64,000 bases of DNA from NCBI RefSeq assembly GCF_013315695.1, contig NZ_CP054353.1; one strand, given 5' to 3'. Position numbers and translations under genes: made by a program. The stretch's first letter is position 1. Each line of letters starts with the position of its first letter. The notes under the pieces were generated by a model that was not told where the DNA came from, ran no database searches, and saw nothing but the letters and a program-made list of their open reading frames with translations. The stretch is from Escherichia coli. GTDB taxonomy: Bacteria > Pseudomonadota > Gammaproteobacteria > Enterobacterales > Enterobacteriaceae. Shown here one piece after another: positions 15,945-43,026 of this stretch.

Positions 15945-16030
15945 CCTGTAGGCCAGATAAGACGCGTTAGTGTCTTATCTGGCATTTGCACTGAATGCCA
16001 GATGCGGCGTAAACGCCTTATCCGTCCTAC
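15945..16030. repeat. REP-like palindromic units between convergent rcsB and rcsC
   Basis: GATGCGGCGTAAACGCCTTATCCG-type units read in sequence. Confidence 0.6.
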
Positions 16031-18876
16031 GATTCCCGCGATTTCCTGACCCTCTCGGCATATACCGTCAGCGTCTGTTTTATCACATCCAGCGTTACCG
16101 GCTTCGACAGGCAGCTGTCCATACCGGACTCCAGACACCGCTGCTTCTCTTCAGCCAACGCATTAGCAGTTACTCCGATTACCGGCAACGTCAGTCCCAA
16201 CTGACGAATGCGTTGCGTCAAGCGGTAACCATCCATATTTGGCATGTTGACGTCGCTAAGCACGATATCAATATGATTCTTGCTAAGTACATTAAGCGCA
16301 TCGACGCCATCATTCGCGGTTTTACATTGATAACCCAACGATCCCAACTGATCTGCCAGCAGACGCCGGTTAATCGGATGATCATCCACGACCAGAATCA
16401 TCATATCGTCGTTATCGCTGACCGCTTTGTCCGTCGACGGCAGAGCGTTAGCAGGATCATCGCTCTCCATCTCGATCAAATAAATACGCGCCAACAATGC
16501 CGGTAGCTCATGCGGTGCAGCCACACTGTGTACCCACTCCCCTGGCGCTTTCTCCAGCGGAATACCAATATGGCGACGACAGAAGGTCACTACCGCTCTA
16601 CCCTGCCATTTTTTGCTCACTACCTCGTCAGTGATTAACACATCTTCGGGAGTCGGTTCCTGCCCTTCGTATGTTGTAACGACGATGCCGCTGCGCTGCA
16701 AACTGGTTTCCAGGAACTGACAGAGCGACGCATTGCGGACCGCCAGCCAGCAGCGTTTACCACTCAACCCTTCCACGCCTTTTTTCTGCGGGTACTGAGC
16801 GCCGTACAACGGAATACGCACGGTAAACTGGCTGCCTATTCCCGGTTCTGAATCTACCGAGATGTCGCCGTCCATCATGCTGATCAGTTTTTCACAAATC
16901 GCCAGACCCAGACCGGTCCCCTGGAAGTTTCGCTGTACGCCCGTTCCGACCTGGAAGAAGGGATCAAACAAGCGCACGACTTCTTTCGCCGGAATCCCCA
17001 CGCCGGTATCGCGAACACGGATAGAGAGATAATCGCCATCAGCGCGAACTTGCAAAACTATACAGCCGGTATCGGTGAATTTTATGGCGTTACTCAACAG
17101 GTTGGAGATGACCTGCTGTAAACGCATCGGGTCGCCATTTAAGGCCACTGGCACATCCGGTTCAATAAAGCAGTACAAGCCTAACTGCTTGCGTACCACC
17201 AGCGGTAAATAGTTGGCGGTGATGTGGTTCATCACTTCACGCGGTGAAAACTCACGCGGTTCGATCTTCAACTGTTCTGATTCAATTTTCGAGAAATCGA
17301 GAATATCGCTGATAATTTTCAACAACAGGCTGGAAGAGTTGTTCATTGCCGTCACCAGACGATCGACGCCTTTCGGTAACTCTTTGGTTTGCAACAGATC
17401 CAGGTTACCGATAATGCCATACAGCGGCGTTCGCAGCTCATGACTGACGGTGGCAAGGAACATCGATTTTGACTGGCTCGCCTGTTCCGCTGCTTGTGCC
17501 ATCTCCTGCAACGACTCTTCCATCTTCACGCGCGAAGAAACATCCACCAGCACACAAATGGCCACGTTTTCATTACGATAGCGCGAATGGACGAAGCTGA
17601 TTTGCAGATTGGTATTGTTGCTGGTCAGGACATCAACAAAATTGACCTGCTGCCCACAGATAATTTGTGTCAGCCGTTGGCGATCCTCATGCGTAAGCAT
17701 ATTGAGATAGGTATGCGCCAGTTCGTTACTTAAAATATTGACGCCATCAGCGGTACGCAATATGCAGATACCCACTGGCGCGGAGGCGACAATCTTGCGA
17801 TTAAACTGCTCATGTTCTTCCAGTCGCAGGGCGTCGCTTTCCGCCGGAATGAAAATACGCCGCTCGTACATCCGCGCGAGAGTAAACAATGCAGCTCCGG
17901 CAAGCACATTCAGCAAAATTGCGTTAAGGATCAACATGCGAATGCGTTCCAGCACCTTATCAACCGGCACCGAATACACGATGCTTAGCGATGAGGGTGG
18001 CAGATTTTTCTTCAGCACCAGCTCCCGGAACCCTTCCGTATAGCCAAACCAGGAGCGTTCCTGCATCCAGCGAGGATCGCCCTTAATTTTGCTTTCTGGT
18101 CCGGTAAGCGAAATCAGGGTATGACCATTTTCATCAAGAATGGTAACCCCCATCGGCAACGTACCAGGCAAGAAAAAGTTCTCCATCCGGATGGTCTGCT
18201 CGACACCCAAAAGCGCCTGCAACCGGTTCGCCAGATAAACTGGCGTCAAGGCGTAAAAATACCCGACGCCAGGGCGCGGACCTTCGCTGATCCAGTAGAG
18301 GTTACTGCCGCTATCATCTTGTGGTGCATTTCGATATTTATTAATGCGTTCATGCAACGCTTTTAGCGCGGTATCGCGTTCCACTGGCATATCACGCAGA
18401 CCGAAATTGGCCATGCAGAGGTTATCGCTGCCGATTAAAAATACCCGGTTGAGATCGTAAGCCGCAGAAAAATTATCGCGCCAGTAGCGCATAAACCACG
18501 CCAATGACTCCAGAGAACCTCGCCAGGTGTTACTCATTGCGGAACAATCAGAGTCAGCAAACAGCGGTTCAAACGCAGGCACATCCGTCTGCGTTTCTCG
18601 TCCACGCGGGGAAAGCACACCGTTTTCTGCCGATAAGCGATTTTCGGCGATGTACTTCAGCTCTTTCATCACATCAGAGGTGCGTTGAATAAAGCGCTGA
18701 GCCTGATCGGAACTCAGATTAAATTCCTGACGAATTTCCGATTCTCGCTGATGTAACGCATTAACGATGTAAAAAACGGATGAAAAAGCAATCAACAGCC
18801 AGAGCACTAACGCCAATGCTCTGAACATGTAGCGCGAGGCTTTCAGGGTTGTACGAAAAGAAGCAAGGTATTTCAA
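16027..18876 (-). CDS. rcsC: hybrid sensor histidine kinase RcsC
   Basis: 949-aa ORF with TM sensor, HisKA/HATPase and C-terminal receiver domain. Confidence 0.9.
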   Translation of the reverse strand: MKYLASFRTTLKASRYMFRALALVLWLLIAFSSVFYIVNALHQRESEIRQEFNLSSDQAQRFIQRTSDVMKELKYIAENRLSAENGVLSPRGRETQTDVPAFEPLFADSDCSAMSNTWRGSLESLAWFMRYWRDNFSAAYDLNRVFLIGSDNLCMANFGLRDMPVERDTALKALHERINKYRNAPQDDSGSNLYWISEGPRPGVGYFYALTPVYLANRLQALLGVEQTIRMENFFLPGTLPMGVTILDENGHTLISLTGPESKIKGDPRWMQERSWFGYTEGFRELVLKKNLPPSSLSIVYSVPVDKVLERIRMLILNAILLNVLAGAALFTLARMYERRIFIPAESDALRLEEHEQFNRKIVASAPVGICILRTADGVNILSNELAHTYLNMLTHEDRQRLTQIICGQQVNFVDVLTSNNTNLQISFVHSRYRNENVAICVLVDVSSRVKMEESLQEMAQAAEQASQSKSMFLATVSHELRTPLYGIIGNLDLLQTKELPKGVDRLVTAMNNSSSLLLKIISDILDFSKIESEQLKIEPREFSPREVMNHITANYLPLVVRKQLGLYCFIEPDVPVALNGDPMRLQQVISNLLSNAIKFTDTGCIVLQVRADGDYLSIRVRDTGVGIPAKEVVRLFDPFFQVGTGVQRNFQGTGLGLAICEKLISMMDGDISVDSEPGIGSQFTVRIPLYGAQYPQKKGVEGLSGKRCWLAVRNASLCQFLETSLQRSGIVVTTYEGQEPTPEDVLITDEVVSKKWQGRAVVTFCRRHIGIPLEKAPGEWVHSVAAPHELPALLARIYLIEMESDDPANALPSTDKAVSDNDDMMILVVDDHPINRRLLADQLGSLGYQCKTANDGVDALNVLSKNHIDIVLSDVNMPNMDGYRLTQRIRQLGLTLPVIGVTANALAEEKQRCLESGMDSCLSKPVTLDVIKQTLTVYAERVRKSRES

Positions 18877-19555
18877 AGGGGCGAAGCTCCGCCTCAGGTG
18901 ACCGATGGAGTGTGGTTAAGGTAGCGGTAAAAGCGTGTTACCGCAATGTTCTCTCTTCTCTGGAATATGATACACCGCCGAGAAATCATCACCTTAACCT
19001 CTGATAATCGTCATATACCGGACAAGACTAGTGGATTTCAGCATGCATTATATGAAGTGGATTTATCCACGCCGCTTACGCAATCAAATGATTCTGATGG
19101 CAATCCTGATGGTCATTGTCCCAACGCTTACTATTGGTTATATCGTAGAAACAGAAGGACGTTCAGCAGTCTTATCTGAAAAAGAGAAAAAACTTTCTGC
19201 CGTGGTCAACCTGCTTAATCAGGCGCTAGGCGATCGCTATGATCTCTACATCGACTTACCGCGTGAGGAGCGTATCCGCGCATTAAATGCAGAACTTGCC
19301 CCCATTACCGAAAATATCACTCACGCCTTCCCTGGCATCGGCGCTGGTTATTACAACAAAACGCTGGATGCGATAATCACCTACGCGCCTTCAGCGCTAT
19401 ATCAGAATAATGTGGGCGTTACCATTGCCGCAGATCACCCTGGTCGCGAAGTCATGCGTACAAATACCCCTTTGGTTTATTCAGGCAGGCAGGTGCGCGG
19501 CGATATTTTGAATTCAATGATCCCCATTGAGCGTAATGGTGAAATCCTCGGCTAT

Positions 19556-19564
19556 ATCTGGGCC
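19556..19564. repeat. target-site duplication ATCTGGGCC (left copy)
   Basis: Identical 9-mer immediately flanks both IS1 ends. Confidence 0.9.
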
Positions 19565-19579
19565 GGTAATGACTCCAAC

Positions 19580-20083
19580 TTATTGATAGTGTTTTATGTT
19601 CAGATAATGCCCGATGACTTTGTCATGCAGCTCCACCGATTTTGAGAACGACAGCGACTTCCGTCCCAGCCGTGCCAGGTGCTGCCTCAGATTCAGGTTA
19701 TGCCGCTCAATTCGCTGCGTATATCGCTTGCTGATTACGTGCAGCTTTCCCTTCAGGCGGGATTCATACAGCGGCCAGCCATCCGTCATCCATATCACCA
19801 CGTCAAAGGGTGACAGCAGGCTCATAAGACGCCCCAGCGTCGCCATAGTGCGTTCACCGAATACGTGCGCAACAACCGTCTTCCGGAGCCTGTCATACGC
19901 GTAAAACAGCCAGCGCTGGCGCGATTTAGCCCCGACATAGCCCCACTGTTCGTCCATTTCCGCGCAGACGATGACGTCACTGCCCGGCTGTATGCGCGAG
20001 GTTACCGACTGCGGCCTGAGTTTTTTAAGTGACGTAAAATCGTGTTGAGGCCAACGCCCATAATGCGGGCTGTTGCCCGGCAT
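19580..20083 (-). CDS. insB: IS1 transposase InsB reading frame (expressed as InsAB' fusion by -1 frameshift)
   Basis: 167-aa ORF matching IS1 InsB. Confidence 0.9.
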
Positions 20084-20277
20084 CCAACGCCATTCATGGC
20101 CATATCAATGATTTTCTGGTGCGTACCGGGTTGAGAAGCGGTGTAAGTGAACTGCAGTTGCCATGTTTTACGGCAGTGAGAGCAGAGATAGCGCTGATGT
20201 CCGGCGGTGCTTTTGCCGTTACGCACCACCCCGTCAGTAGCTGAACAGGAGGGACAGCTGATAGAAACAGAAGCCAC
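20002..20277 (-). CDS. insA: IS1 InsA (transposition inhibitor / N-terminal part of transposase)
   Basis: 91-aa ORF with zinc-finger Cys motif (CPSCSA...CSHC) matching IS1 InsA. Confidence 0.9.
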
Positions 20278-20332
20278 TGGAGCACCTCAAAAACACCATC
20301 ATACACTAAATCAGTAAGTTGGCAGCATCACC

Positions 20333-20341
20333 ATCTGGGCC
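20333..20341. repeat. target-site duplication ATCTGGGCC (right copy)
   Basis: Identical 9-mer immediately flanks both IS1 ends. Confidence 0.9.
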
Positions 20342-21642
20342 AATGAATTAACCGAAGATATTCGCCGCCAGGCCTGGAAAATGGATGTGAGGATTATCAT
20401 TGTGCTCACCGCCGGTTTGCTGATAAGCCTGCTGTTGATTGTCCTTTTCTCCCGTCGCCTGAGCGCCAATATAGATATCATCACCGATGGCCTCTCGACT
20501 CTGGCACAAAATATTCCCACTCGATTACCACAATTGCCCGGTGAAATGGGGCAAATCAGTCAGAGTGTTAACAACCTCGCCCAGGCACTGCGTGAAACGC
20601 GGACACTTAACGATCTGATTATTGAAAACGCTGCCGATGGCGTCATTGCCATTGACCGCCAGGGTGATGTAACCACCATGAACCCGGCAGCAGAAGTCAT
20701 TACTGGCTATCAACGTCATGAACTGGTAGGGCAGCCTTACTCCATGTTGTTCGACAATACTCAGTTCTACAGTCCAGTACTGGATACGCTGGAACATGGC
20801 ACCGAACATGTAGCACTGGAGATCAGTTTTCCAGGCCGTGACCGCACCATTGAACTCAGTGTCACGACCAGTCGTATTCATAACACGCACGGTGAAATGA
20901 TAGGTGCTTTGGTGATTTTCTCTGATTTAACTGCCCGCAAAGAAACCCAGCGCCGCATGGCGCAAGCAGAACGCCTCGCTACACTGGGTGAGCTGATGGC
21001 TGGCGTGGCGCATGAAGTACGTAATCCGCTAACGGCTATTCGTGGTTATGTACAGATCTTGCGCCAACAAACCAGCGACCCAATACATCAGGAATATCTG
21101 TCCGTAGTACTCAAAGAAATCGATTCAATTAACAAAGTTATTCAGCAATTGCTCGAATTTTCACGTCCACGCCACAGTCAATGGCAACAAGTCAGCCTCA
21201 ATGCATTGGTTGAAGAAACTCTGGTACTGGTACAAACCGCCGGCGTACAAGCGCGGGTCGACTTCATAAGCGAACTGGATAATGAATTAAGCCCGATTAA
21301 CGCCGATCGTGAACTGCTCAAACAGGTACTACTGAATATCCTGATCAATGCCGTCCAGGCTATCAGTGCACGAGGGAAAATTCGCATTCGAACCTGGCAA
21401 TACAGCGACTCACAACAGGCCATTTCGATAGAGGACAACGGCTGTGGCATTGATCTCTCGCTGCAAAAAAAGATCTTCGATCCCTTTTTCACCACCAAAG
21501 CCTCAGGAACCGGGCTTGGTCTGGCGTTAAGTCAACGCATCATTAATGCCCATCAGGGTGATATTCGCGTCGCCAGTTTGCCGGGCTACGGCGCAACCTT
21601 CACGCTTATTTTACCGATCAACCCGCAGGGAAATCAGACTGT

Positions 21643-23028
21643 ATGACTGCTATTAATCGCATCCTTATTGTGGATGATGAAGATAATGTTCGCCGTATGC
21701 TGAGCACCGCTTTTGCACTACAAGGATTCGAAACACATTGTGCGAACAACGGACGCACAGCATTACACCTGTTTGCCGATATTCACCCTGACGTGGTGTT
21801 GATGGATATCCGCATGCCAGAGATGGACGGCATCAAGGCACTCAAGGAGATGCGCAGCCATGAGACACGGACACCCGTTATTCTGATGACGGCCTATGCT
21901 GAAGTGGAAACCGCCGTCGAAGCGCTACGCTGCGGGGCCTTCGACTATGTTATTAAACCGTTTGATCTCGATGAGTTGAATTTAATCGTTCAGCGCGCTT
22001 TACAACTCCAGTCAATGAAAAAAGAGATCCGTCATCTGCACCAGGCACTGAGCACCAGCTGGCAATGGGGGCACATTCTCACCAACAGCCCGGCGATGAT
22101 GGACATCTGCAAAGACACCGCCAAAATTGCCCTTTCTCAGGCCAGCGTCTTGATTAGTGGTGAAAGCGGCACCGGGAAAGAGTTGATTGCCAGAGCGATT
22201 CACTACAATTCGCGGCGGGCAAAGGGGCCGTTCATTAAAGTCAACTGCGCGGCACTGCCGGAATCGTTGCTCGAAAGTGAACTGTTTGGTCATGAAAAAG
22301 GTGCATTTACTGGTGCACAAACCTTGCGTCAGGGATTATTTGAACGTGCCAACGAAGGTACTCTGCTCCTCGACGAAATTGGTGAAATGCCGCTGGTACT
22401 GCAAGCCAAATTACTACGCATTCTGCAGGAACGGGAATTTGAGCGGATTGGCGGCCATCAGACCATAAAAGTTGATATCCGCATCATTGCTGCCACCAAC
22501 CGCGACTTGCAGGCAATGGTGAAAGAAGGCACCTTCCGTGAAGATCTCTTTTATCGCCTTAACGTTATTCATTTAATACTGCCGCCTCTGCGCGATCGCC
22601 GGGAAGATATTTCCCTGTTAGCTAATCACTTTTTGCAAAAATTCAGTAGTGAGAATCAGCGCGATATTATCGACATCGATCCGATGGCAATGTCACTGCT
22701 TACCGCCTGGTCATGGCCGGGAAATATTCGAGAGCTTTCCAACGTTATTGAACGCGCCGTCGTGATGAATTCAGGCCCGATCATTTTTTCTGAGGATCTT
22801 CCGCCGCAGATTCGTCAGCCAGTCTGTAATGCTGGTGAAGCAAAAACAGCCCCTGTCGGTGAGCGTAATTTAAAAGAGGAAATTAAACGCGTCGAAAAAC
22901 GCATCATTATGGAAGTGCTGGAACAACAAGAAGGAAACCGAACCCGCACTGCTTTAATGCTGGGCATCAGTCGCCGTGCATTGATGTATAAACTCCAGGA
23001 ATACGGTATCGATCCGGCGGATGTATAA
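21643..23028 (+). CDS. atoC: sigma54-dependent response regulator AtoC (NtrC family)
   Basis: 461-aa ORF with receiver domain, AAA+ Walker A (GESGTGKE), GAFTGA motif and C-terminal HTH; start overlaps atoS stop (ATGA). Confidence 0.9.
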   Translation: MTAINRILIVDDEDNVRRMLSTAFALQGFETHCANNGRTALHLFADIHPDVVLMDIRMPEMDGIKALKEMRSHETRTPVILMTAYAEVETAVEALRCGAFDYVIKPFDLDELNLIVQRALQLQSMKKEIRHLHQALSTSWQWGHILTNSPAMMDICKDTAKIALSQASVLISGESGTGKELIARAIHYNSRRAKGPFIKVNCAALPESLLESELFGHEKGAFTGAQTLRQGLFERANEGTLLLDEIGEMPLVLQAKLLRILQEREFERIGGHQTIKVDIRIIAATNRDLQAMVKEGTFREDLFYRLNVIHLILPPLRDRREDISLLANHFLQKFSSENQRDIIDIDPMAMSLLTAWSWPGNIRELSNVIERAVVMNSGPIIFSEDLPPQIRQPVCNAGEAKTAPVGERNLKEEIKRVEKRIIMEVLEQQEGNRTRTALMLGISRRALMYKLQEYGIDPADV

Positions 23029-23039
23029 CGCCAAAACTT

Positions 23040-23080
23040 GCTATGCAGAAATTTGCACAGTGCGCAATTTTCTGCATAGC
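23040..23080. promoter_or_regulatory. AtoC binding site: inverted repeat GCTATGCAGAAA-N17-TTTCTGCATAGC upstream of atoD
   Basis: Perfect 12-bp inverted arms read directly; spacer itself is near-palindromic (TTGCACAGTGCGCAA). Confidence 0.7.
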
Positions 23081-23162
23081 CGCTCATTCTCCTTATAAAC
23101 CCCCATCTAATTTATCCTTTTCTATTCAATTAGTTAAATAACAACCCCCAATAATCTCATTC

Positions 23163-23178
23163 TGGCACTCCCCTTGCT
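23163..23178 (+). promoter_or_regulatory. sigma54 (-24/-12) promoter of atoDAEB: TGGCAC-N5-TTGCT
   Basis: Matches the sigma54 consensus TGGCAC-N5-TTGCW; located about 45 bp upstream of atoD start and about 100 bp downstream of the AtoC palindrome. Confidence 0.75.
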
Positions 23179-23223
23179 ATTCCCTGACTGTACCCACAAC
23201 GGTGTATGCAAGAGGGATAAAAA

Positions 23224-23886
23224 ATGAAAACAAAATTGATGACATTACAAGACGCCACCGGCTTCTTTCGTGACGGCATGACCATCATGGTGGGCGGATT
23301 TATGGGGATTGGCACTCCATCCCGCCTGGTTGAAGCATTACTGGAATCTGGTGTTCGCGACCTGACATTGATAGCCAATGATACCGCGTTTGTTGATACC
23401 GGCATCGGTCCGCTCATCGTCAATGGTCGAGTCCGCAAAGTGATTGCTTCACATATCGGTACCAACCCGGAAACAGGTCGGCGCATGATTTCTGGTGAGA
23501 TGGACGTCGTTCTGGTGCCGCAAGGTACGCTAATCGAGCAAATTCGCTGTGGCGGAGCTGGACTTGGTGGTTTTCTCACCCCAACTGGTGTCGGCACCGT
23601 CGTAGAGGAAGGCAAACAGACACTGACACTCGACGGTAAAACCTGGCTGCTCGAACGCCCGCTGCGCGCCGACCTGGCGCTCATTCGCGCTCATCGTTGC
23701 GACACACTTGGCAACCTGACCTATCACCTTAGCGCCCGCAACTTTAACCCCCTGATAGCCCTTGCGGCTGATATCACGCTGGTAGAGCCAGATGAACTGG
23801 TCGAAACCGGCGAGCTGCAACCTGACCATATTGTCACCCCTGGTGCCGTTATCGACCACATCATCGTTTCACAGGAGAGCAAATAA
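23224..23886 (+). CDS. atoD: acetate/acetoacetate CoA-transferase alpha subunit
   Basis: 220-aa ORF matching AtoD; operon atoDAEB. Confidence 0.9.
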
Positions 23887-24536
23887 TGGATGCGAAACAA
23901 CGTATTGCGCGCCGTGTGGCGCAAGAGCTTCGTGATGGTGACATCGTTAACTTAGGGATCGGTTTACCCACAATGGTCGCCAATTATTTACCGGAGGGTA
24001 TTCATATCACTCTGCAATCGGAAAACGGCTTCCTCGGTTTAGGCCTGGTCACGACAGCGCATCCAGATCTGGTGAACGCTGGCGGACAACCGTGCGGCAT
24101 TTTACCCGGCGCAGCCATGTTTGATAGCGCCATGTCATTTGCGCTAATCCGTGGCGGTCATATTGATGCCTGCGTGCTCGGCGGTTTGCAAGTAGACGAA
24201 GAAGCAAACCTCGCGAACTGGGTAGTGCCTGGGAAAATGGTGCCCGGTATGGGTGGCGCGATGGATCTGGTGACCGGGTCGCGCAAAGTGATCATCGCCA
24301 TGGAACATTGCGCCAAAGATGGTTCAGCAAAAATTTTGCGCCGCTGCACCATGCCTCTCACTGCGCAACATGCGGTGCATATGCTGGTTACTGAACTGGC
24401 TGTCTTTCGTTTTATTGACGGCAAAATGTGGCTCACCGAAATTGCCGACGGGTGTGATTTAGCCACCGTGCGTGCCAAAACAGAAGCTCGGTTTGAAGTA
24501 GCTGCCGACCTGAATACGCAACGGGGTGATTTATGA
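23886..24536 (+). CDS. atoA: acetate/acetoacetate CoA-transferase beta subunit
   Basis: 216-aa ORF matching AtoA; start overlaps atoD stop. Confidence 0.9.
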   Translation: MDAKQRIARRVAQELRDGDIVNLGIGLPTMVANYLPEGIHITLQSENGFLGLGLVTTAHPDLVNAGGQPCGILPGAAMFDSAMSFALIRGGHIDACVLGGLQVDEEANLANWVVPGKMVPGMGGAMDLVTGSRKVIIAMEHCAKDGSAKILRRCTMPLTAQHAVHMLVTELAVFRFIDGKMWLTEIADGCDLATVRAKTEARFEVAADLNTQRGDL

Positions 24537-25855
24537 TTGGTCGCATATCGCGTTTTATGACGCGTTTTGTCAGCCGGTGGCTTCCCGATCCACTGATCTT
24601 TGCCATGTTGCTGACATTGCTAACATTCGTGATCGCGCTTTGGTTAACACCACAAACGCCGATCAGCATGGTGAAAATGTGGGGTGACGGTTTCTGGAAC
24701 TTGCTGGCGTTTGGTATGCAGATGGCGCTTATCATCGTTACCGGTCATGCCCTTGCCAGCTCTGCTCCGGTAAAAAGTTTGCTGCGTACTGCCGCCTCCG
24801 CCGCAAAGACGCCCGTACAGGGCGTCATGCTGGTTACTTTCTTCGGTTCAGTCGCTTGTGTCATCAACTGGGGATTTGGTTTGGTTGTCGGCGCAATGTT
24901 TGCCCGTGAAGTCGCCCGCCGAGTACCCGGTTCTGATTATCCGTTGCTCATTGCCTGCGCCTACATTGGTTTTCTCACCTGGGGTGGCGGTTTCTCTGGC
25001 TCAATGCCTCTGTTGGCTGCAACACCGGGCAACCCGGTTGAGCATATCGCCGGGCTGATCCCGGTGGGCGATACTCTGTTCAGTGGTTTTAACATTTTCA
25101 TCACTGTGGCGTTGATTGTGGTGATGCCATTTATCACCCGCATGATGATGCCAAAACCGTCTGACGTGGTGAGTATCGATCCGAAACTACTCATGGAAGA
25201 GGCTGATTTCCAAAAGCAGCTACCGAAAGATGCCCCACCATCCGAGCGGCTGGAAGAAAGCCGCATTCTGACGTTGATCATCGGCGCACTCGGTATCGCT
25301 TACCTTGCGATGTACTTCAGCGAACATGGCTTCAACATCACCATCAATACCGTCAACCTGATGTTTATGATTGCGGGTCTGCTGCTACATAAAACGCCAA
25401 TGGCTTATATGCGTGCTATCAGCGCGGCAGCACGCAGTACTGCCGGTATTCTGGTGCAATTCCCCTTCTACGCTGGGATCCAACTGATGATGGAGCATTC
25501 CGGTCTGGGCGGACTCATTACCGAATTCTTCATCAATGTTGCGAACAAAGACACCTTCCCGGTAATGACCTTTTTTAGTTCTGCACTGATTAACTTCGCC
25601 GTTCCGTCTGGCGGCGGTCACTGGGTTATTCAGGGACCTTTCGTGATACCCGCAGCCCAGGCGCTGGGCGCTGATCTCGGTAAATCGGTAATGGCGATCG
25701 CCTACGGCGAGCAATGGATGAACATGGCACAACCGTTCTGGGCGCTGCCAGCACTGGCAATCGCCGGACTCGGTGTCCGCGACATCATGGGCTATTGCAT
25801 CACTGCCCTGCTCTTCTCCGGCGTCATTTTCGTCATTGGTTTAACGCTGTTCTGA
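24533..25855 (+). CDS. atoE: short-chain fatty acid transporter AtoE
   Basis: 440-aa polytopic membrane protein; operon position. Confidence 0.9.
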   Translation: MIGRISRFMTRFVSRWLPDPLIFAMLLTLLTFVIALWLTPQTPISMVKMWGDGFWNLLAFGMQMALIIVTGHALASSAPVKSLLRTAASAAKTPVQGVMLVTFFGSVACVINWGFGLVVGAMFAREVARRVPGSDYPLLIACAYIGFLTWGGGFSGSMPLLAATPGNPVEHIAGLIPVGDTLFSGFNIFITVALIVVMPFITRMMMPKPSDVVSIDPKLLMEEADFQKQLPKDAPPSERLEESRILTLIIGALGIAYLAMYFSEHGFNITINTVNLMFMIAGLLLHKTPMAYMRAISAAARSTAGILVQFPFYAGIQLMMEHSGLGGLITEFFINVANKDTFPVMTFFSSALINFAVPSGGGHWVIQGPFVIPAAQALGADLGKSVMAIAYGEQWMNMAQPFWALPALAIAGLGVRDIMGYCITALLFSGVIFVIGLTLF

Positions 25856-25885
25856 CGGCAACCCTACAGACAGAAGGAATATAAA

Positions 25886-27070
25886 ATGAAAAATTGTGTC
25901 ATCGTCAGTGCGGTACGTACTGCTATCGGTAGTTTTAACGGTTCACTCGCTTCCACCAGCGCCATCGACCTGGGGGCGACAGTAATTAAAGCCGCCATTG
26001 AACGTGCAAAAATCGATTCACTACACATTGATGAAGTGATTATGGGTAACGTGTTGCAAGCCGGGCTGGGGCAAAATCCGGCGCGTCAGGCGCTGCTAAA
26101 AAGCGGACTAGCTGAAACGGTGTGCGGATTCACGATCAACAAAGTGTGCGGTTCAGGTCTGAAAAGCGTGGCGCTTGCTGCACAGGCGATTCAGGCAGGT
26201 CAGGCACAGAGCATTGTGGCGGGGGGTATGGAAAATATGAGTTTAGCACCCTACTTACTCGATGCAAAAGCACGCTCTGGTTATCGTCTTGGAGACGGAC
26301 AGGTTTATGACGTAATCCTGCGCGATGGCCTGATGTGCGCCACCCATGGTTATCATATGGGGATTACCGCCGAAAACGTGGCTAAAGAGTACGGAATTAC
26401 CCGTGAAATGCAGGATGAACTGGCGCTACATTCACAGCGTAAAGCTGCAGCCGCAATTGAGTCCGGTGCTTTTACAGCCGAAATCGTCCCGGTAAATATT
26501 GTCACCCGGAAGAAAACCTTCGTCTTCAGTCAAGACGAATTCCCGAAAGCGAATTCAACGGCTGAAGCGTTAGGTGCATTGCGCCCGGCCTTCGATAAAG
26601 CAGGAACAGTCACCGCCGGGAACGCGTCTGGTATTAACGACGGTGCTGCCGCTCTGGTGATTATGGAAGAATCTGCGGCGCTGGCAGCAGGCCTTACCCC
26701 CCTGGCTCGCATTAAAAGTTATGCCAGCGGTGGCGTGCCCCCCGCATTGATGGGTATGGGGCCAGTACCTGCCACGCAAAAAGCGTTACAACTGGCGGGG
26801 CTGCAACTGGCGGATATTGATCTCATTGAGGCTAATGAAGCATTTGCCGCACAGTTCCTTGCCGTTGGGAAAACCCTGGGCTTTGATTCTGAGAAAGTGA
26901 ATGTCAACGGCGGGGCCATCGCGCTCGGGCATCCTATCGGTGCCAGTGGTGCTCGTATTCTGGTCACACTATTACATGCCATGCAGGCACGCGATAAAAC
27001 GCTGGGGCTGGCAACACTGTGCATTGGTGGTGGCCAGGGAATTGCGATGGTGATTGAACGGTTGAATTAA
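25886..27070 (+). CDS. atoB: acetyl-CoA acetyltransferase (thiolase II)
   Basis: 394-aa ORF with thiolase active-site regions (NKVCGSG..., C-terminal CIGGGQG). Confidence 0.9.
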
Positions 27071-39547: not shown

Positions 39548-40750
39548 TTATTTGATCACATAGGCAAGATATTGTTGTACGATTTCATCGTTTAATTCCT
39601 GACCAAGCCCAGGCAACTCTGGCGCGACATAATAGCCATTCTCGGGTTGATAATCGTAAGTACAAAGTTCCCGAATACATGCTTTCATCGCATTGGTATG
39701 ATGTTCATGAATAATAAAGTTAGGTATTGCAGTTTCCATATGCAGCGCCGCTACTGTTGAAACAGGCCCGCCACAAACATGTACCTGAACGGTTGTGTCA
39801 TATATATTGGCATAATCACAAATTTTCTTTCCCTCTGTAATGCCACCACAAAGACACAAATCAGGTTGAGCTACCGCAATTGATTGTTTTTCCAGTAAAT
39901 CACGATATCCCCAGCGAGTATAAGAACGCTCACCTGTTGCTATCGGAATCGATGTTGAACGGGCAACTTTCTGCATATTATCCGAATTTAATGGATGAAT
40001 TGGCTCCTCATAGAGAAAAATACGATATTTCTCTATTGCTTTGGCAAACTGGATCGCTGAATTTGTTCCTAGAAGAGAATGAATCTCTACAATAATATCA
40101 GCATCGTCGCCCATTGCTTCACGCATAGCGGCAATTCTTGCCTCGCCCATTTTTAATTGTTCGGCCAGTAATAAGCCAGAGTAATTTCTATTTTTGTTCT
40201 GAAAGACACAATCGCCGCCATGCAGATCGATTTCAAGCGGATCAACTTTTATCGCATTATAACCTTCTGCAATAGCGGCACGCGCTGCCTCTGCATACTC
40301 TTCAGGCGTTACTAATATTTGCCTTTTTTCGCCCCAACCAAATTGTAACTGACTGGCGTAAGTTCTCAATTTATCGTTAGTCTTTCCCCCCAGTAGTTGA
40401 TAAACCGGCACGTTTAAATATTTACCTTTAATATCCCATAAGGCAATATCAATAGCGCTCATACCTGCGTAAAAAACATTACCACCGCCCATTCCCCAAA
40501 ATGTTTTCCTGAAGAGGAATTCCCAAATCTTCTCAATGTTCAACGGATCTTCACCAATGATGAGAGGGGCTAAATCTCTGATAATACCAACACCAGATTT
40601 TGCACCTGCACCATAGGCTAATCCTACTTCGCCAACACCACTTATTCCAGCATCGGTATTAACCCGAATAAGTACTGGATTATAAGAGGCCATAGTTTGA
40701 TCTCTTTTTTTGAGTTCGCAGTCAAAAATTTCTACAGATGTAATCTTCAT
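39548..40750 (-). CDS. enolase-superfamily sugar-acid dehydratase (mandelate racemase/muconate lactonizing enzyme fold; DgoD/ManD-like)
   Basis: ORF 39548..40762; start placed at ATG 40750 (MKITSVEIF...) which has a GAGG Shine-Dalgarno 7 nt upstream; N-terminal capping domain and metal-binding barrel motifs typical of the family. Confidence 0.8.
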   Translation of the reverse strand: MKITSVEIFDCELKKRDQTMASYNPVLIRVNTDAGISGVGEVGLAYGAGAKSGVGIIRDLAPLIIGEDPLNIEKIWEFLFRKTFWGMGGGNVFYAGMSAIDIALWDIKGKYLNVPVYQLLGGKTNDKLRTYASQLQFGWGEKRQILVTPEEYAEAARAAIAEGYNAIKVDPLEIDLHGGDCVFQNKNRNYSGLLLAEQLKMGEARIAAMREAMGDDADIIVEIHSLLGTNSAIQFAKAIEKYRIFLYEEPIHPLNSDNMQKVARSTSIPIATGERSYTRWGYRDLLEKQSIAVAQPDLCLCGGITEGKKICDYANIYDTTVQVHVCGGPVSTVAALHMETAIPNFIIHEHHTNAMKACIRELCTYDYQPENGYYVAPELPGLGQELNDEIVQQYLAYVIK

Positions 40751-40762
40751 AAATAACCTCAT

Positions 40763-41998
40763 TTATTTAGCATGTGAAATAACATTGTCTTTCTGGGCGT
40801 TATCTTTTTTATTATCAATTTTCATTGATAACAAAATAGCTACGGCGATAAAGCAAAGAATCGCCTCAACAATAAATATCCCCGTGGCTCCATAATGTGT
40901 AGAAACATAGCCAAGTGATTTATTGATCAGAAAACCACCCAAACTTGAACAAGAGTTAATAAACGCAATACTGATTGCCAGGCCTGATGGTGAAAGTAAA
41001 GCTGAGGGTAAAGCCCAGTACGGACCGTAATAACTGAGAATGCCTACACCGTATAATGTTAATCCCATCATGCGCAGCGTCATCGAAGGTACAAGTGCGA
41101 TCATTAAAAAACCGCAACCTGCAACCAACATCGGTAGTGCGGCATGCCATTTCCTTTCATTCTTTTTATCGGAATGCCATCCCCATAATGGCATACTGAA
41201 CATCGCGAAAATAAACGGAATACTCATAATCAAACCGACATCGGTATCTGTGAAATCCGATGAAAATCCTTTAACCAACCCCGGTAACCAGTAATTTGCC
41301 GCCAACGCCGCTGCCTGAATAAACATATAAGCAAATGAGAGTTGTAGTAATACTGGATTTTTAATGATTGACAGAAAAGATGCATTTGTATTTTTATTTA
41401 ATGCTGCGGCTTTTTCGTTATCAGAATTAAGTTTATCGACCAATGCGGTGACTTGCGATGGTGTAAGCCAGCGGGCTTTTTCCGGACGATCTGGCAGTAA
41501 ATAAAAGGTCAGCGCCCCCAATAACACCGTAGGAATGCCTTCAATAGCAAAAAGCCAGCGCCATCCTTCATAGTTACCGGTATTCATATGTTCAATAATC
41601 CAACCAGACATTGGTGCCGCCAGCACAGATGCAACTGCGATTGATAACATAAAAAAGCTATTCACTTTTCCACGTTCGCGCGCCGGGAACCAACATGCCA
41701 GGTAGTAAACCATGCCAGGGAAAAACCCCGCTTCAAATATTCCCAAAAAGACCCGAGCGAGCAATATATGCTGGGTGTCTTTGGCAAAGAAAATTAACGT
41801 TGTTACTGTTCCCCAACCAACAATAATGGCGCTAATCCATTTTCTTGCACCTAACTTTTGCAATCCAATACTGCTCGGAGTTTGAAAAATTAAATAGGAC
41901 ACAAAAAATATTGAAGATATATTAGCAAAATCCTCTGGAGTAATACCAAGGGATTCATTCATGCGTAAAGCGGCAAACCCAATATTAACACGATCCAT
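40763..41998 (-). CDS. MFS transporter, anion:cation symporter-like (sugar-acid uptake); 5' end apparently frameshifted, see findings
   Basis: 411-aa ORF with MFS signature (DRVNIGFAA...) ; the expected first about 31 codons are in a different frame (ATG at 42090). Confidence 0.75.
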   Translation of the reverse strand: MDRVNIGFAALRMNESLGITPEDFANISSIFFVSYLIFQTPSSIGLQKLGARKWISAIIVGWGTVTTLIFFAKDTQHILLARVFLGIFEAGFFPGMVYYLACWFPARERGKVNSFFMLSIAVASVLAAPMSGWIIEHMNTGNYEGWRWLFAIEGIPTVLLGALTFYLLPDRPEKARWLTPSQVTALVDKLNSDNEKAAALNKNTNASFLSIIKNPVLLQLSFAYMFIQAAALAANYWLPGLVKGFSSDFTDTDVGLIMSIPFIFAMFSMPLWGWHSDKKNERKWHAALPMLVAGCGFLMIALVPSMTLRMMGLTLYGVGILSYYGPYWALPSALLSPSGLAISIAFINSCSSLGGFLINKSLGYVSTHYGATGIFIVEAILCFIAVAILLSMKIDNKKDNAQKDNVISHAK

Positions 41999-42180
41999 AT
42001 AGTTAAAAAATACAGAATAAATGCTAACGGAATAATCTTCCTTTTCACAATAGAAATGGCATCATACAAATCTTTCTGAGGACTGCTCATTTTGTTTCAC
42101 CTTTTGTGCTTCAATGAATAAGAGTACTACCCGAAGTGGATATTACGTAAAAAATAATCCAGTTCAAAAGGTGATGTGTT

Positions 42181-42196
42181 ATATCTGATATATCAG
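42181..42196. promoter_or_regulatory. palindromic operator-like site ATATCTGATATATCAG (copy 1) in divergent MFS/GntR promoter region
   Basis: CTGATATATCAG is a perfect palindrome; near-identical copy 70 bp downstream. Confidence 0.5.
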
Positions 42197-42250
42197 CCTG
42201 ATCATTGATTGAAACACTAACCTACAACAATAAGATACATTATTTTTGTC

Positions 42251-42266
42251 ATATCTGATATATTAG
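42251..42266. promoter_or_regulatory. operator-like site ATATCTGATATATTAG (copy 2)
   Basis: 15/16 identical to copy 1; 62 bp upstream of the GntR gene start. Confidence 0.5.
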
Positions 42267-42327
42267 ACACCTTCATTTATAAAATGATTACATATAATGG
42301 GTCAGCAGCTTAATAAGGGGCAAAGGA

Positions 42328-43026
42328 ATGAGAGATAAAGCGAAACGTGACTTAAGTCACATATCAATTGAGATACCAAAATCCGTAACCCAGGTCATCA
42401 AAGAAAAAATCAGGGATATGATAATTCATGGCGATCTCAGTCTTGGGCAACCGATAAGTGAAAATGAACTTTCGAATATTCTGGCGGTAAGTAAAACACC
42501 TATTCGTGAAGCTTTTATTTTACTTAGTCACAATGAAAATCTGATCAATATCATTCCACGCAGCGGAACATTCGTTTTTTCCGTAACAGATAAAGATATT
42601 AATGACCTCATAAAAATGCGAGTAATTCTGGAGCAGGGTGCAATTAGTGAAACAATGGAAAAGAATGCAAACAATGTCATCATTGAACTAAATAGTATAC
42701 TATCAAAATCAGCAAAAATTAATGCCGAGCGCGATACTCAGGCTTATCTTAAACTGGATCATGATTTTCATTATGTGTTTGTTAAATACGCTGATAATAA
42801 ATACATCTCTCAGGCACACCAATTGATATCCGCACGTTTACTTGCTATCCGTTATCGACTGGATTTCACTACGGAATATATCACCAATTCAAATCGTGGC
42901 CATGCGACTATTTTAGATATGCTAAAAAATAATAACGTTGAAGGTGTTTGTAATTTTATTACTCATCACGTAAGTAGTGGATTTACCGAGCGCGCACGAA
43001 AAATTCTCTCGTTATCTACACAGTAA
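42328..43026 (+). CDS. GntR-family transcriptional regulator (N-terminal wHTH, C-terminal FCD-like domain)
   Basis: 232-aa ORF with GntR HTH signature (ISENELSNILAVSKTPIREAF); strongly A/T-ending codon usage. Confidence 0.8.
   Translation: MRDKAKRDLSHISIEIPKSVTQVIKEKIRDMIIHGDLSLGQPISENELSNILAVSKTPIREAFILLSHNENLINIIPRSGTFVFSVTDKDINDLIKMRVILEQGAISETMEKNANNVIIELNSILSKSAKINAERDTQAYLKLDHDFHYVFVKYADNKYISQAHQLISARLLAIRYRLDFTTEYITNSNRGHATILDMLKNNNVEGVCNFITHHVSSGFTERARKILSLSTQ

Follow-up and report, generated by a model that had tools for sequence, protein, structure and literature searches.

Has this strain lost its AtoSC two-component system, or does the downstream half of an atoS gene cut in two by an insertion sequence live on as a kinase without a sensor? 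In the window, by which is meant the whole stretch of 64,000 nucleotides of Escherichia coli DNA analysed here, a 768-bp IS1 at 19565-20332 splits atoS after codon 174, within the periplasmic sensing domain. The original prediction was that the 3' part, if transcribed, could phosphorylate AtoC independently of signal, and that atoC expression would be restored despite the polar insertion. An ordinary and very recent IS1 transposition, which inactivates atoS, is polar and leaves atoDAEB non-inducible, is in our view the likely explanation, the downstream kinase half being most likely an unexpressed leftover rather than a new signal-blind kinase. The disrupted gene is composed of the following parts:

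19043-19564, plus strand: atoS 5' fragment, native codons 1-174 (TM1 and most of the periplasmic sensing domain)
19556-19564, no strand: left copy of the target-site duplication ATCTGGGCC, from the sequence and alignment with the intact allele
19565-20332, minus strand: IS1 (IS1A-like), 768 bp, IRR end at 19565 and IRL end at 20332, from reading frames, repeats and RefSeq naming
20333-20341, no strand: right copy of the target-site duplication ATCTGGGCC, from the sequence
20342-21646, plus strand: atoS 3' remnant, codons 175-608, from the reading frame, Pfam and motif search

The element has the features of the IS1 family, namely a length of about 768 bp with inverted repeats, insA and insB' with a frameshift motif, and a target duplication. 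Its left end opens with GGTAATGACTCC and its right end closes with GGCAGCATCACC, both of the imperfect terminal inverted repeats of about 23 bp (GGTGATGCTGCCAACTTACTGAT / GGTAATGACTCCAACTTATTGAT) are matched exactly, and near-identical copies are labelled in RefSeq as 'IS1-like element IS1A family transposase'. The insA gene (91 aa, 20002-20277) and the insB frame (19580-20083) both lie on the minus strand, antisense to atoS, with the A6C slippery motif AAAAAAC 306 nt from IRL and insB' in the -1 frame after insA. A perfect direct 9-bp duplication, ATCTGGGCC, flanks the element and is present as a single copy in the intact atoS allele, which is the mark of transposition (8-9 bp being expected for the IS1 family). 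Position 20333, where the region of the original prediction begins, is thus the first base beyond IS1.

Comparison with E. coli MSB1_4I, which carries an intact, annotated atoS, indicates how young this event must be. The two sequences differ by 2 + 2 mismatches over 46.3 kb and by none across the 6.7 kb of 20333-27070, the alignment blocks overlap by precisely the 9 bp ATCTGGGCC, and the sole structural difference is IS1 together with 9 bp. The 5' part of atoS is identical to that of MSB1_4I and the 3' part is base-for-base identical to the intact gene of this sister strain, so that wild-type atoS would return if IS1 were excised precisely at the 9-bp repeats. The IS1/atoS junction was found in none of 5,426 complete E. 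coli genomes with a 130-bp query designed to exclude matches to IS1 alone, nor as an exact 35-mer in the GTDB species representatives, and the chimeric 5' reading frame, from either start codon, was absent by exact look-up from an index of 15 billion proteins. A 1-kb junction query had been swamped by IS1 copies and was set aside, its single match being an independent IS1 elsewhere in atoS. Since junction and chimeric frame are absent from these collections, the insertion looks private and, judged from these comparisons, appears to be very recent. The 3' fragment would accordingly be intact because the insertion is too young for decay, its intactness being uninformative on function, and conservation was rejected as a test of function because no substitution separates it from the intact allele; the 421-codon kinase frame and its junction with atoC would be native features that have not yet had time to decay.

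The same comparison bears on the proposal that IS1 acts as a reversible switch, in which precise excision at the 9-bp repeats turns atoS on and off at low frequency. The perfect duplication and the identity of both halves to the intact allele mean that the MSB1_4I sequence would be recovered exactly if IS1 left precisely, but precise excision of IS1 is rare, nothing points to selection for switching, and a junction seen in 0 of 5,426 complete genomes gives no sign of a maintained polymorphism, which makes a switch very improbable.

For the expression of atoS, the consequences of the insertion can be followed along the reading frame. The 5' frame picks up 26 foreign codons from IS1 before ending at a TGA at 19643-19645, and the atoS frame inside IS1 is closed again by a TAA at 20315-20317, with no ATG, GTG or TTG in that frame between this TAA and the ATG at 20381. 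The two halves joined would give exactly 608 aa; as they stand on separate reading frames, the complete AtoS architecture of TM1, sensing domain, TM2 and cytoplasmic modules on one polypeptide is not present. Ribosomes entering from the atoS start would be expected to halt at the TGA 78 nt inside IS1, leaving more than 700 nt of RNA untranslated, with a C-rich, G-poor stretch that would favour Rho-dependent termination. Within the untranslated part, C/G ratios at 19724-19957 run from 1.4 to 1.7, and the plus strand carries a terminator-like hairpin inside IS1 at 20192-20206. Because of the C-rich stretch, little transcription from the atoS promoter would be predicted to reach the 3' fragment or atoC, and full-length AtoS would not be made. 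Polarity is a classical property of IS1 insertions, whatever their orientation. The classical polar IS1 mutations of the gal and lac operons resemble the present case in having a 768-bp IS1 with a 9-bp duplication in the first gene of an operon whose downstream genes are intact.

What lies beyond IS1 is nevertheless a kinase in its sequence. The first in-frame start is the native Met188 (ATG 20381), and the reading frame from it (20381-21646) encodes 421 aa, that is AtoS residues 188-608; it is native atoS sequence and no chance pattern. Two of its features could be placed as follows:

20390-20452, plus strand: TM2, about residues 191-211, with SRR on its C-terminal side, from a Kyte-Doolittle hydropathy peak at residues ~190-211
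21011-21013, plus strand: codon for His398, which accepts the phosphate in the H box (AHEVRNP), from the motif and the HisKA match

Pfam recognizes in the Met188 frame a weak HAMP domain (E = 1.7e-3), PAS (8e-23), HisKA (5e-18) and HATPase_c (1.6e-25), and beyond the H box the N, G1, F and G2 boxes appear as NILINA at 506, DNGCGI at 539, FDPFFTTK at 553 and GTGLGL at 563. The predicted order of an ATG at 20381 followed by TM2, PAS, HisKA with HEVRNP and HATPase is thus borne out by reading frame, hydropathy, Pfam and motifs together, with HAMP as the weak match, and so at the sequence level is the completeness of the HisKA/HATPase_c core. The premise that a cytoplasmic AtoS fragment can phosphorylate both itself and AtoC holds as well, and the activity of this core is already published: truncated His-AtoS is active in trans-phosphorylation in vitro (PMC1784093), cytoplasmic AtoS 232-608 has been overexpressed with AtoC in vivo (PMC10963238), and these engineered constructs, competent for phosphotransfer to AtoC, share with the fragment the PAS-HisKA-HATPase_c core with His398. 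They are, however, soluble and driven by strong plasmid promoters, whereas the fragment would keep TM2 and HAMP and shows neither an obvious promoter nor an obvious ribosome-binding site. For the cytosolic region of AtoS, PMC1784093 reports autophosphorylation only 'at a very low rate'.

On these grounds a sensor-less kinase can be envisaged in which the 3' fragment, transcribed from a fusion or cryptic promoter or by read-through and started at Met188 or Val195, gives a TM2-anchored protein that might phosphorylate AtoC independently of signal and deregulate atoDAEB, with the overlap of the two genes delivering AtoC by translational coupling. The complete kinase core speaks for it, and MDVR before TM2 and SRR after it would fit an N-out/C-in topology under the positive-inside rule. 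Recency by itself, however, fully accounts for the intact frame. Two signals at the IRL end of IS1 are relevant here:

20298-20325, minus strand: promoter-like site in IRL for insA (CTGCCA-16-TATGAT), firing leftward, away from the atoS 3' fragment
20319-20324, plus strand: outward -35-like TTGGCA in IRL, 8 bp from the IS end, from a hexamer scan, the concept being that of PMC8764528

Read-out from IS1 into the atoS 3' part, one of the two suggested sources of transcription, runs the wrong way, since the two transposase genes, insA and insB, occupy the minus strand and the IS1 promoter points toward rcsC, away from the fragment. Hybrid ('fusion') promoters at IS1 flanks were reportedly described by Prentki et al. 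in 1986. An outward -35 at IS1 ends can build such promoters, as in the activation of afaA in ST131, and activation requires a well-placed -10 (PMC8764528). The window resembles these cases in the outward TTGGCA of the terminal repeat and differs in its atoS flank, which has no -10 at the required distance of 16-18 bp: for spacers of 14-20 bp the best partner matches 3/6 (range 1-3/6) and no candidate combines A2 with T6, so that the second, defining half of an IS1 hybrid promoter is missing. Where IS1 meets atoS, a stricter 9-of-12 promoter scan likewise gave no site on the plus strand, and an IS1/atoS fusion promoter is not supported by the sequence. The cryptic promoter proposed as the other source fares little better, with relaxed promoter-like matches being sparser in 20250-21660 (3.5 per kb) than in the whole window (5.9 per kb), and with no convincing sigma-70-like site found by consensus scans in 20333-21643. 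A weak fusion or cryptic promoter may still be present, as it could escape consensus scans.

Translation of the fragment would meet a further obstacle at Met188, which has no real Shine-Dalgarno sequence and an unremarkable ribosome-binding site, its anti-SD pairing being -3.5 kcal/mol; of the window's ATGs, 22% pair as strongly or more so. GTG 20402 (Val195) is preceded by a decent Shine-Dalgarno, GAGGA (-6.0 kcal/mol), which makes some translation of a truncated protein conceivable if mRNA exists. RNA folding around the start codons of the Met188 frame and of atoC showed nothing unusual. Taken with the lack of a promoter-like site at the junction, the weak start at Met188 makes a signal-blind kinase improbable in this strain, and the sequence offers nothing that favours an expressed, active truncated kinase.

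The genes downstream, which such a kinase would control, are all intact:

21643-21646, plus strand: ATGA overlap of atoC start and atoS stop, from the sequence, a wild-type junction
21643-23028, plus strand: atoC, intact, 461 aa, from the reading frame, with Asp55, Ile129 and a GAFTGA motif
23041-23178, plus strand: atoDAEB control region, with a palindrome (GCTATGCAGAAA...TTTCTGCATAGC) and a sigma-54 element
23224-27070, plus strand: atoD, atoA, atoE and atoB, intact, of 220, 216, 440 and 394 aa, from reading frames 100% identical to MSB1_4I

AtoC has the Asp55 and GAFTGA of an NtrC-family sigma-54 activator, and Response_reg, Sigma54_activat and HTH_8 (Pfam) are recorded for the same-position products of related loci. 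The palindrome GCTATGCAGAAA...TTTCTGCATAGC is presumably the AtoC binding site, and the atoDAEB promoter, with its -24/-12 element TGGCACtccccTTGCT at 23163-23178, is intact and depends on an activator. PMC1784093 calls the phosphorylation of AtoC by AtoS essential for activating atoDAEB, and wild-type AtoC would need it to activate this sigma-54 promoter. Expression of ato independent of signal is known genetically from atoC(Con) I129S, as in strain LS5218 (PMC5699524), where the lesion lies in the response regulator, not in the kinase; with the wild-type Ile129, the AtoC of the window is not this constitutive allele.

How atoC itself may be expressed depends first on its junction with atoS, where 21640-21647 reads GTATGACT and the atoS TGA (21644-21646) overlaps the atoC ATG (21643-21645). 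The predicted ATGA overlap is therefore real, but it does not 'restore' atoC expression, being the wild-type junction; 17 of 17 related loci fetched have the same gene arrangement. Together with the long spacing of 12 nt between the start and the moderate Shine-Dalgarno of atoC (AGGGA, -5.1 kcal/mol), it suggests that atoC translation may normally lean on atoS translation; no occluding RNA structure was seen at the atoC start (z = 0.66). An alternative, possible yet on balance doubtful, is that AtoS is lost and AtoC usefully retained, with atoC expressed from a promoter within the atoS 3' region, so that AtoS-independent roles of AtoC (as ornithine decarboxylase antizyme and in basal DNA binding) are kept and acetoacetate induction is lost. 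The Kyriakidis group gives atoC its own promoter, and in a delta-atoSC host the 'atoC promoter'-lacZ fusion pCPG6 is expressed and can be induced by putrescine (PMC1784093), so that some atoC transcription may start inside atoS, downstream of IS1, where the gene's own Shine-Dalgarno could serve it. The boundaries of that clone are not in the text of PMC1784093, and a multicopy plasmid carries the fusion; the lack of a convincing sigma-70-like site in 20333-21643 and the probable dependence of atoC on atoS translation also weigh against useful expression. Under polar loss of atoS, the reading we prefer, AtoC would be at best weakly expressed, through promoter activity inside atoS, and would stay unphosphorylated, the expected phenotype being the loss of acetoacetate-inducible atoDAEB expression (Ato-negative). 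The alternative originally drawn, that the strain is either Ato-null or constitutive, was fair, and the evidence favours its null side.

Disruption of atoS is by no means unique to this strain, the gene being broken in many ways in public E. coli and Shigella data, by an independent IS1, by amber alleles and with many other fragment lengths. E. coli 2018-05-5CC (NZ_AP027886.1) likewise has an IS1 in atoS with antisense transposase, at about codon 515, inside HATPase_c, rather than at 174/175 as here, and RefSeq annotates both of its atoS halves as pseudogene pieces. Two natural amber alleles, Q184* in E. coli (for the most part from poultry) and W186* in Shigella sonnei among others, leave an identical 421-aa Met188 frame upstream of intact atoC and atoDAEB; as point mutations they do not break transcription from the atoS promoter by an IS, and translational polarity only is to be expected of them. 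Differences in the 3' frame among their carriers are mostly synonymous, and each allele is found on at least two atoS haplotypes, so that divergence before and after the mutation is inseparable. With these mixed haplotypes, and with retrieval by exact frame identity biasing the set toward codons just before Met188, neither selection nor a hotspot was read into Q184* and W186*. About 28% of complete genomes lack the ato locus altogether, and its loss is thus tolerated. One may still speculate that low levels of a membrane-anchored AtoS 188-608 (or 195-608) keep AtoC partly phosphorylated even when acetoacetate is absent, and that truncations before Met188 (IS1 at codon 174, Q184*, W186*), all of which spare the frame and atoC-atoDAEB, are selected and not mere loss, the selected trait then being deregulated short-chain fatty-acid catabolism or AtoC-dependent traits; we regard this as highly improbable.

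Were the truncated kinase expressed and active, the locus would be a natural case of two-component rewiring by removal of the sensor domain, with consequences for the use of short-chain fatty acids in the gut. As it stands the finding matters little, being the conversion to a pseudogene, by IS1 and in one strain, of the gene for a two-component sensor that is conditionally dispensable. For annotation and the prediction of phenotype, the strain should be scored as atoS-defective, probably with no acetoacetate induction of atoDAEB despite an intact-looking atoC-atoDAEB.

The window covers the E. coli rcsC / atoS-atoC / atoDAEB neighbourhood, in which atoS has been cut by an IS1 element after codon 174.

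Features of the interrupted ato locus (window coordinates)
19556-19564 and 20333-20341, identical 9-bp direct repeats (ATCTGGGCC) flanking IS1
19565-20332, transposase genes on the minus strand, IS1 of 768 bp
20002-20277, minus strand, intact insA inside IS1
20325 to 20298, pointing leftwards like the transposase genes, IS1 promoter in IRL
20319-20324, outward -35-like hexamer TTGGCA at the IS1 end
20381-21646, 421-aa ORF, the 3' part of atoS from Met188
21643-21646, ATGA overlap of the atoS TGA and the atoC ATG
23041-23178, intact atoDAEB control region

The terminal repeats of the element are canonical (left GGTAATGACTCC..., right the reverse complement of GGTGATGCTGCC...), and the A6C frameshift motif and the insB frame also lie within it on the minus strand. 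The 5' atoS ORF runs for 26 codons into IS1 and ends at a TGA (19643-19645); on the other side an IS1-borne TAA (20315-20317) stands in the atoS frame, and the next start codon is ATG 20381, the native Met188. Joined together, the two halves give exactly the 608-aa protein.

The stretch of 6,738 bp that begins with the right-hand repeat and closes with atoB shows 100% identity to E. coli MSB1_4I (NZ_LR898874.1), a sister strain whose atoS is annotated as intact in RefSeq. Across all 46.3 kb open to comparison, four substitutions and not a single indel separate the window from MSB1_4I. The two alignment blocks share precisely the 9 duplicated bases, and structurally nothing but IS1 and those 9 bp sets the sequences apart. 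The IS1/atoS junction was present in none of 5,426 complete E. coli genomes and was not found among GTDB species representatives, nor was the chimeric 5' ORF in a large protein index. This near-identity to an intact sister, with a junction seen nowhere else, points to a private and very young insertion. Separately, in MSB1_4I (locus L009, 39216-42694) an MFS transporter and a GntR-family regulator adjoining a mandelate racemase-like gene are frameshifted pseudogenes in RefSeq; window 39548-43026 aligns gap-free to that stretch and so probably shares the frameshifts.

The original prediction, that an in-frame ATG after IS1 opens a TM2-PAS-HisKA-HATPase frame whose stop overlaps the atoC start, was borne out in every detail, and the feature is real and accurately described. 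Within the 421-aa ORF, TM2 stands out as a strong peak of hydropathy (AtoS residues ~190-211) with SRR just after it; Pfam clearly recovers PAS, HisKA and HATPase_c, and HAMP only weakly (E = 1.7e-3); and the H box (AHEVRNP, with His398) is accompanied by the N, G1, F and G2 boxes. The kinase core is still complete because the insertion is too young for it to have decayed, and the intact ORF is uninformative about function.

That truncated AtoS can act on AtoC is already known: it trans-phosphorylates AtoC in vitro, with recombinant cytosolic AtoS autophosphorylating only at a very low rate (PMC1784093), and overexpressed cyto-AtoS (232-608) has been used together with AtoC (PMC10963238). A sensor-less kinase made from the 3' fragment is nevertheless highly improbable, as no signal in the sequence speaks for it and the transcription source proposed for it is contradicted. 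Read-out from IS1 had been suggested, yet the transposase genes and the IRL promoter face the opposite way, so that any such transcript would cross the atoS 5' fragment in antisense and head for rcsC, away from the 3' fragment. Outward -35 hexamers at IS1 ends can build fusion promoters, only when a correctly spaced -10 is available (PMC8764528); at spacers of 14-20 bp, the partners of TTGGCA match TATAAT at 1-3 of six positions, none having both A2 and T6, and a standard scan picked up nothing promoter-like on the plus strand around the junction. A cryptic promoter fared no better: relaxed matches are, if anything, rarer in 20250-21660 than window-wide (3.5 versus 5.9 per kb). On the rcsC side (16027-19564), minus-strand read-out past the atoS 5' fragment would enter rcsC (start 18876) in the sense direction; a hybrid promoter is not evident at that IS1 end either, the best -10 by eye being TATAGC (4/6, without T6), and the scan found no minus-strand promoter-like site there.

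Read-through from the atoS promoter would need to cross IS1 untranslated beyond the TGA at 19643. IS1 insertions are classically strongly polar, and the untranslated RNA is consistent with this: about 230 nt of it have a C/G ratio between 1.4 and 1.7, and at 20192-20206 it contains a hairpin resembling a terminator. Only GGAAA precedes Met188 (anti-SD pairing -3.5 kcal/mol, equalled or bettered by 22% of window ATGs), and the in-frame GTG 20402 (Val195) has a better ribosome-binding site, with GAGGA at good spacing (-6.0 kcal/mol); its product would start inside TM2. RNA folding around the Met188 and atoC starts was unremarkable.

The ATGA overlap, proposed to restore atoC expression by coupling, is the native atoS-atoC junction, seen in every related locus fetched, and is insufficient by itself; the ribosome-binding site of atoC is moderate (-5.1 kcal/mol). 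An 'atoC promoter'-lacZ fusion is active in a delta-atoSC host (PMC1784093), which means that some AtoS-independent atoC transcription may begin inside atoS. This possible start is the main uncertainty of the polarity argument, and continued expression of atoC from an internal promoter despite IS1 is unlikely, if less so than the kinase. According to PMC1784093, atoDAEB cannot be activated unless AtoS phosphorylates AtoC. The known route to constitutive expression is atoC I129S (PMC5699524), whereas AtoC in the window has Ile129, and also Asp55. In the atoDAEB control region a long palindrome (GCTATGCAGAAATTTGCACAGTGCGCAATTTTCTGCATAGC) is retained, and 45 bp before atoD lies a sigma-54 -24/-12 element of canonical form (TGGCACtccccTTGCT), so the operon still depends on activated AtoC.

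Broken atoS alleles occur elsewhere. An independent IS1 lies in atoS of E. coli 2018-05-5CC (NZ_AP027886.1, 5041-5738), at about codon 515 within HATPase_c, its transposase antisense to atoS as in the window and both atoS pieces called pseudogenes by RefSeq. Looking up the exact 421-aa ORF also retrieved contigs in which amber mutations create it.

Amber alleles leaving the same 421-aa Met188 ORF (equivalent window positions)
20369-20371, codon 184, Q184* (CAG>TAG), loci L008 and L010-L017
20375-20377, codon 186, W186* (TGG>TAG), loci L002-L007, some carriers named Shigella sonnei by NCBI

In these loci atoC-atoDAEB is usually intact. Q184* occurs in 12 of the 3,765 complete E. coli genomes holding the site, mostly from chickens, and each allele has two or more different atoS haplotypes as its background, which suggests recurrent mutation or short-patch recombination. 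They are not taken as a sign of a hotspot or of selection, since retrieval by exact ORF identity admits only C->T or G->A stops within a span of ~27 codons. Fragment clusters hold many other lengths (e.g., a 249-aa form on 32 contigs), and the ato region (20333-27070) is matched in only 3,930 of the 5,426 complete genomes, the whole locus being absent from about 28%.

The insertion is thus an ordinary, recent IS1 knockout of atoS, probably polar, both element and event being of already known kinds. Its most likely phenotype, which we consider quite probable, is loss of acetoacetate-inducible atoDAEB expression. In nature atoS is broken in many ways, and cells evidently tolerate losing the function of AtoS.
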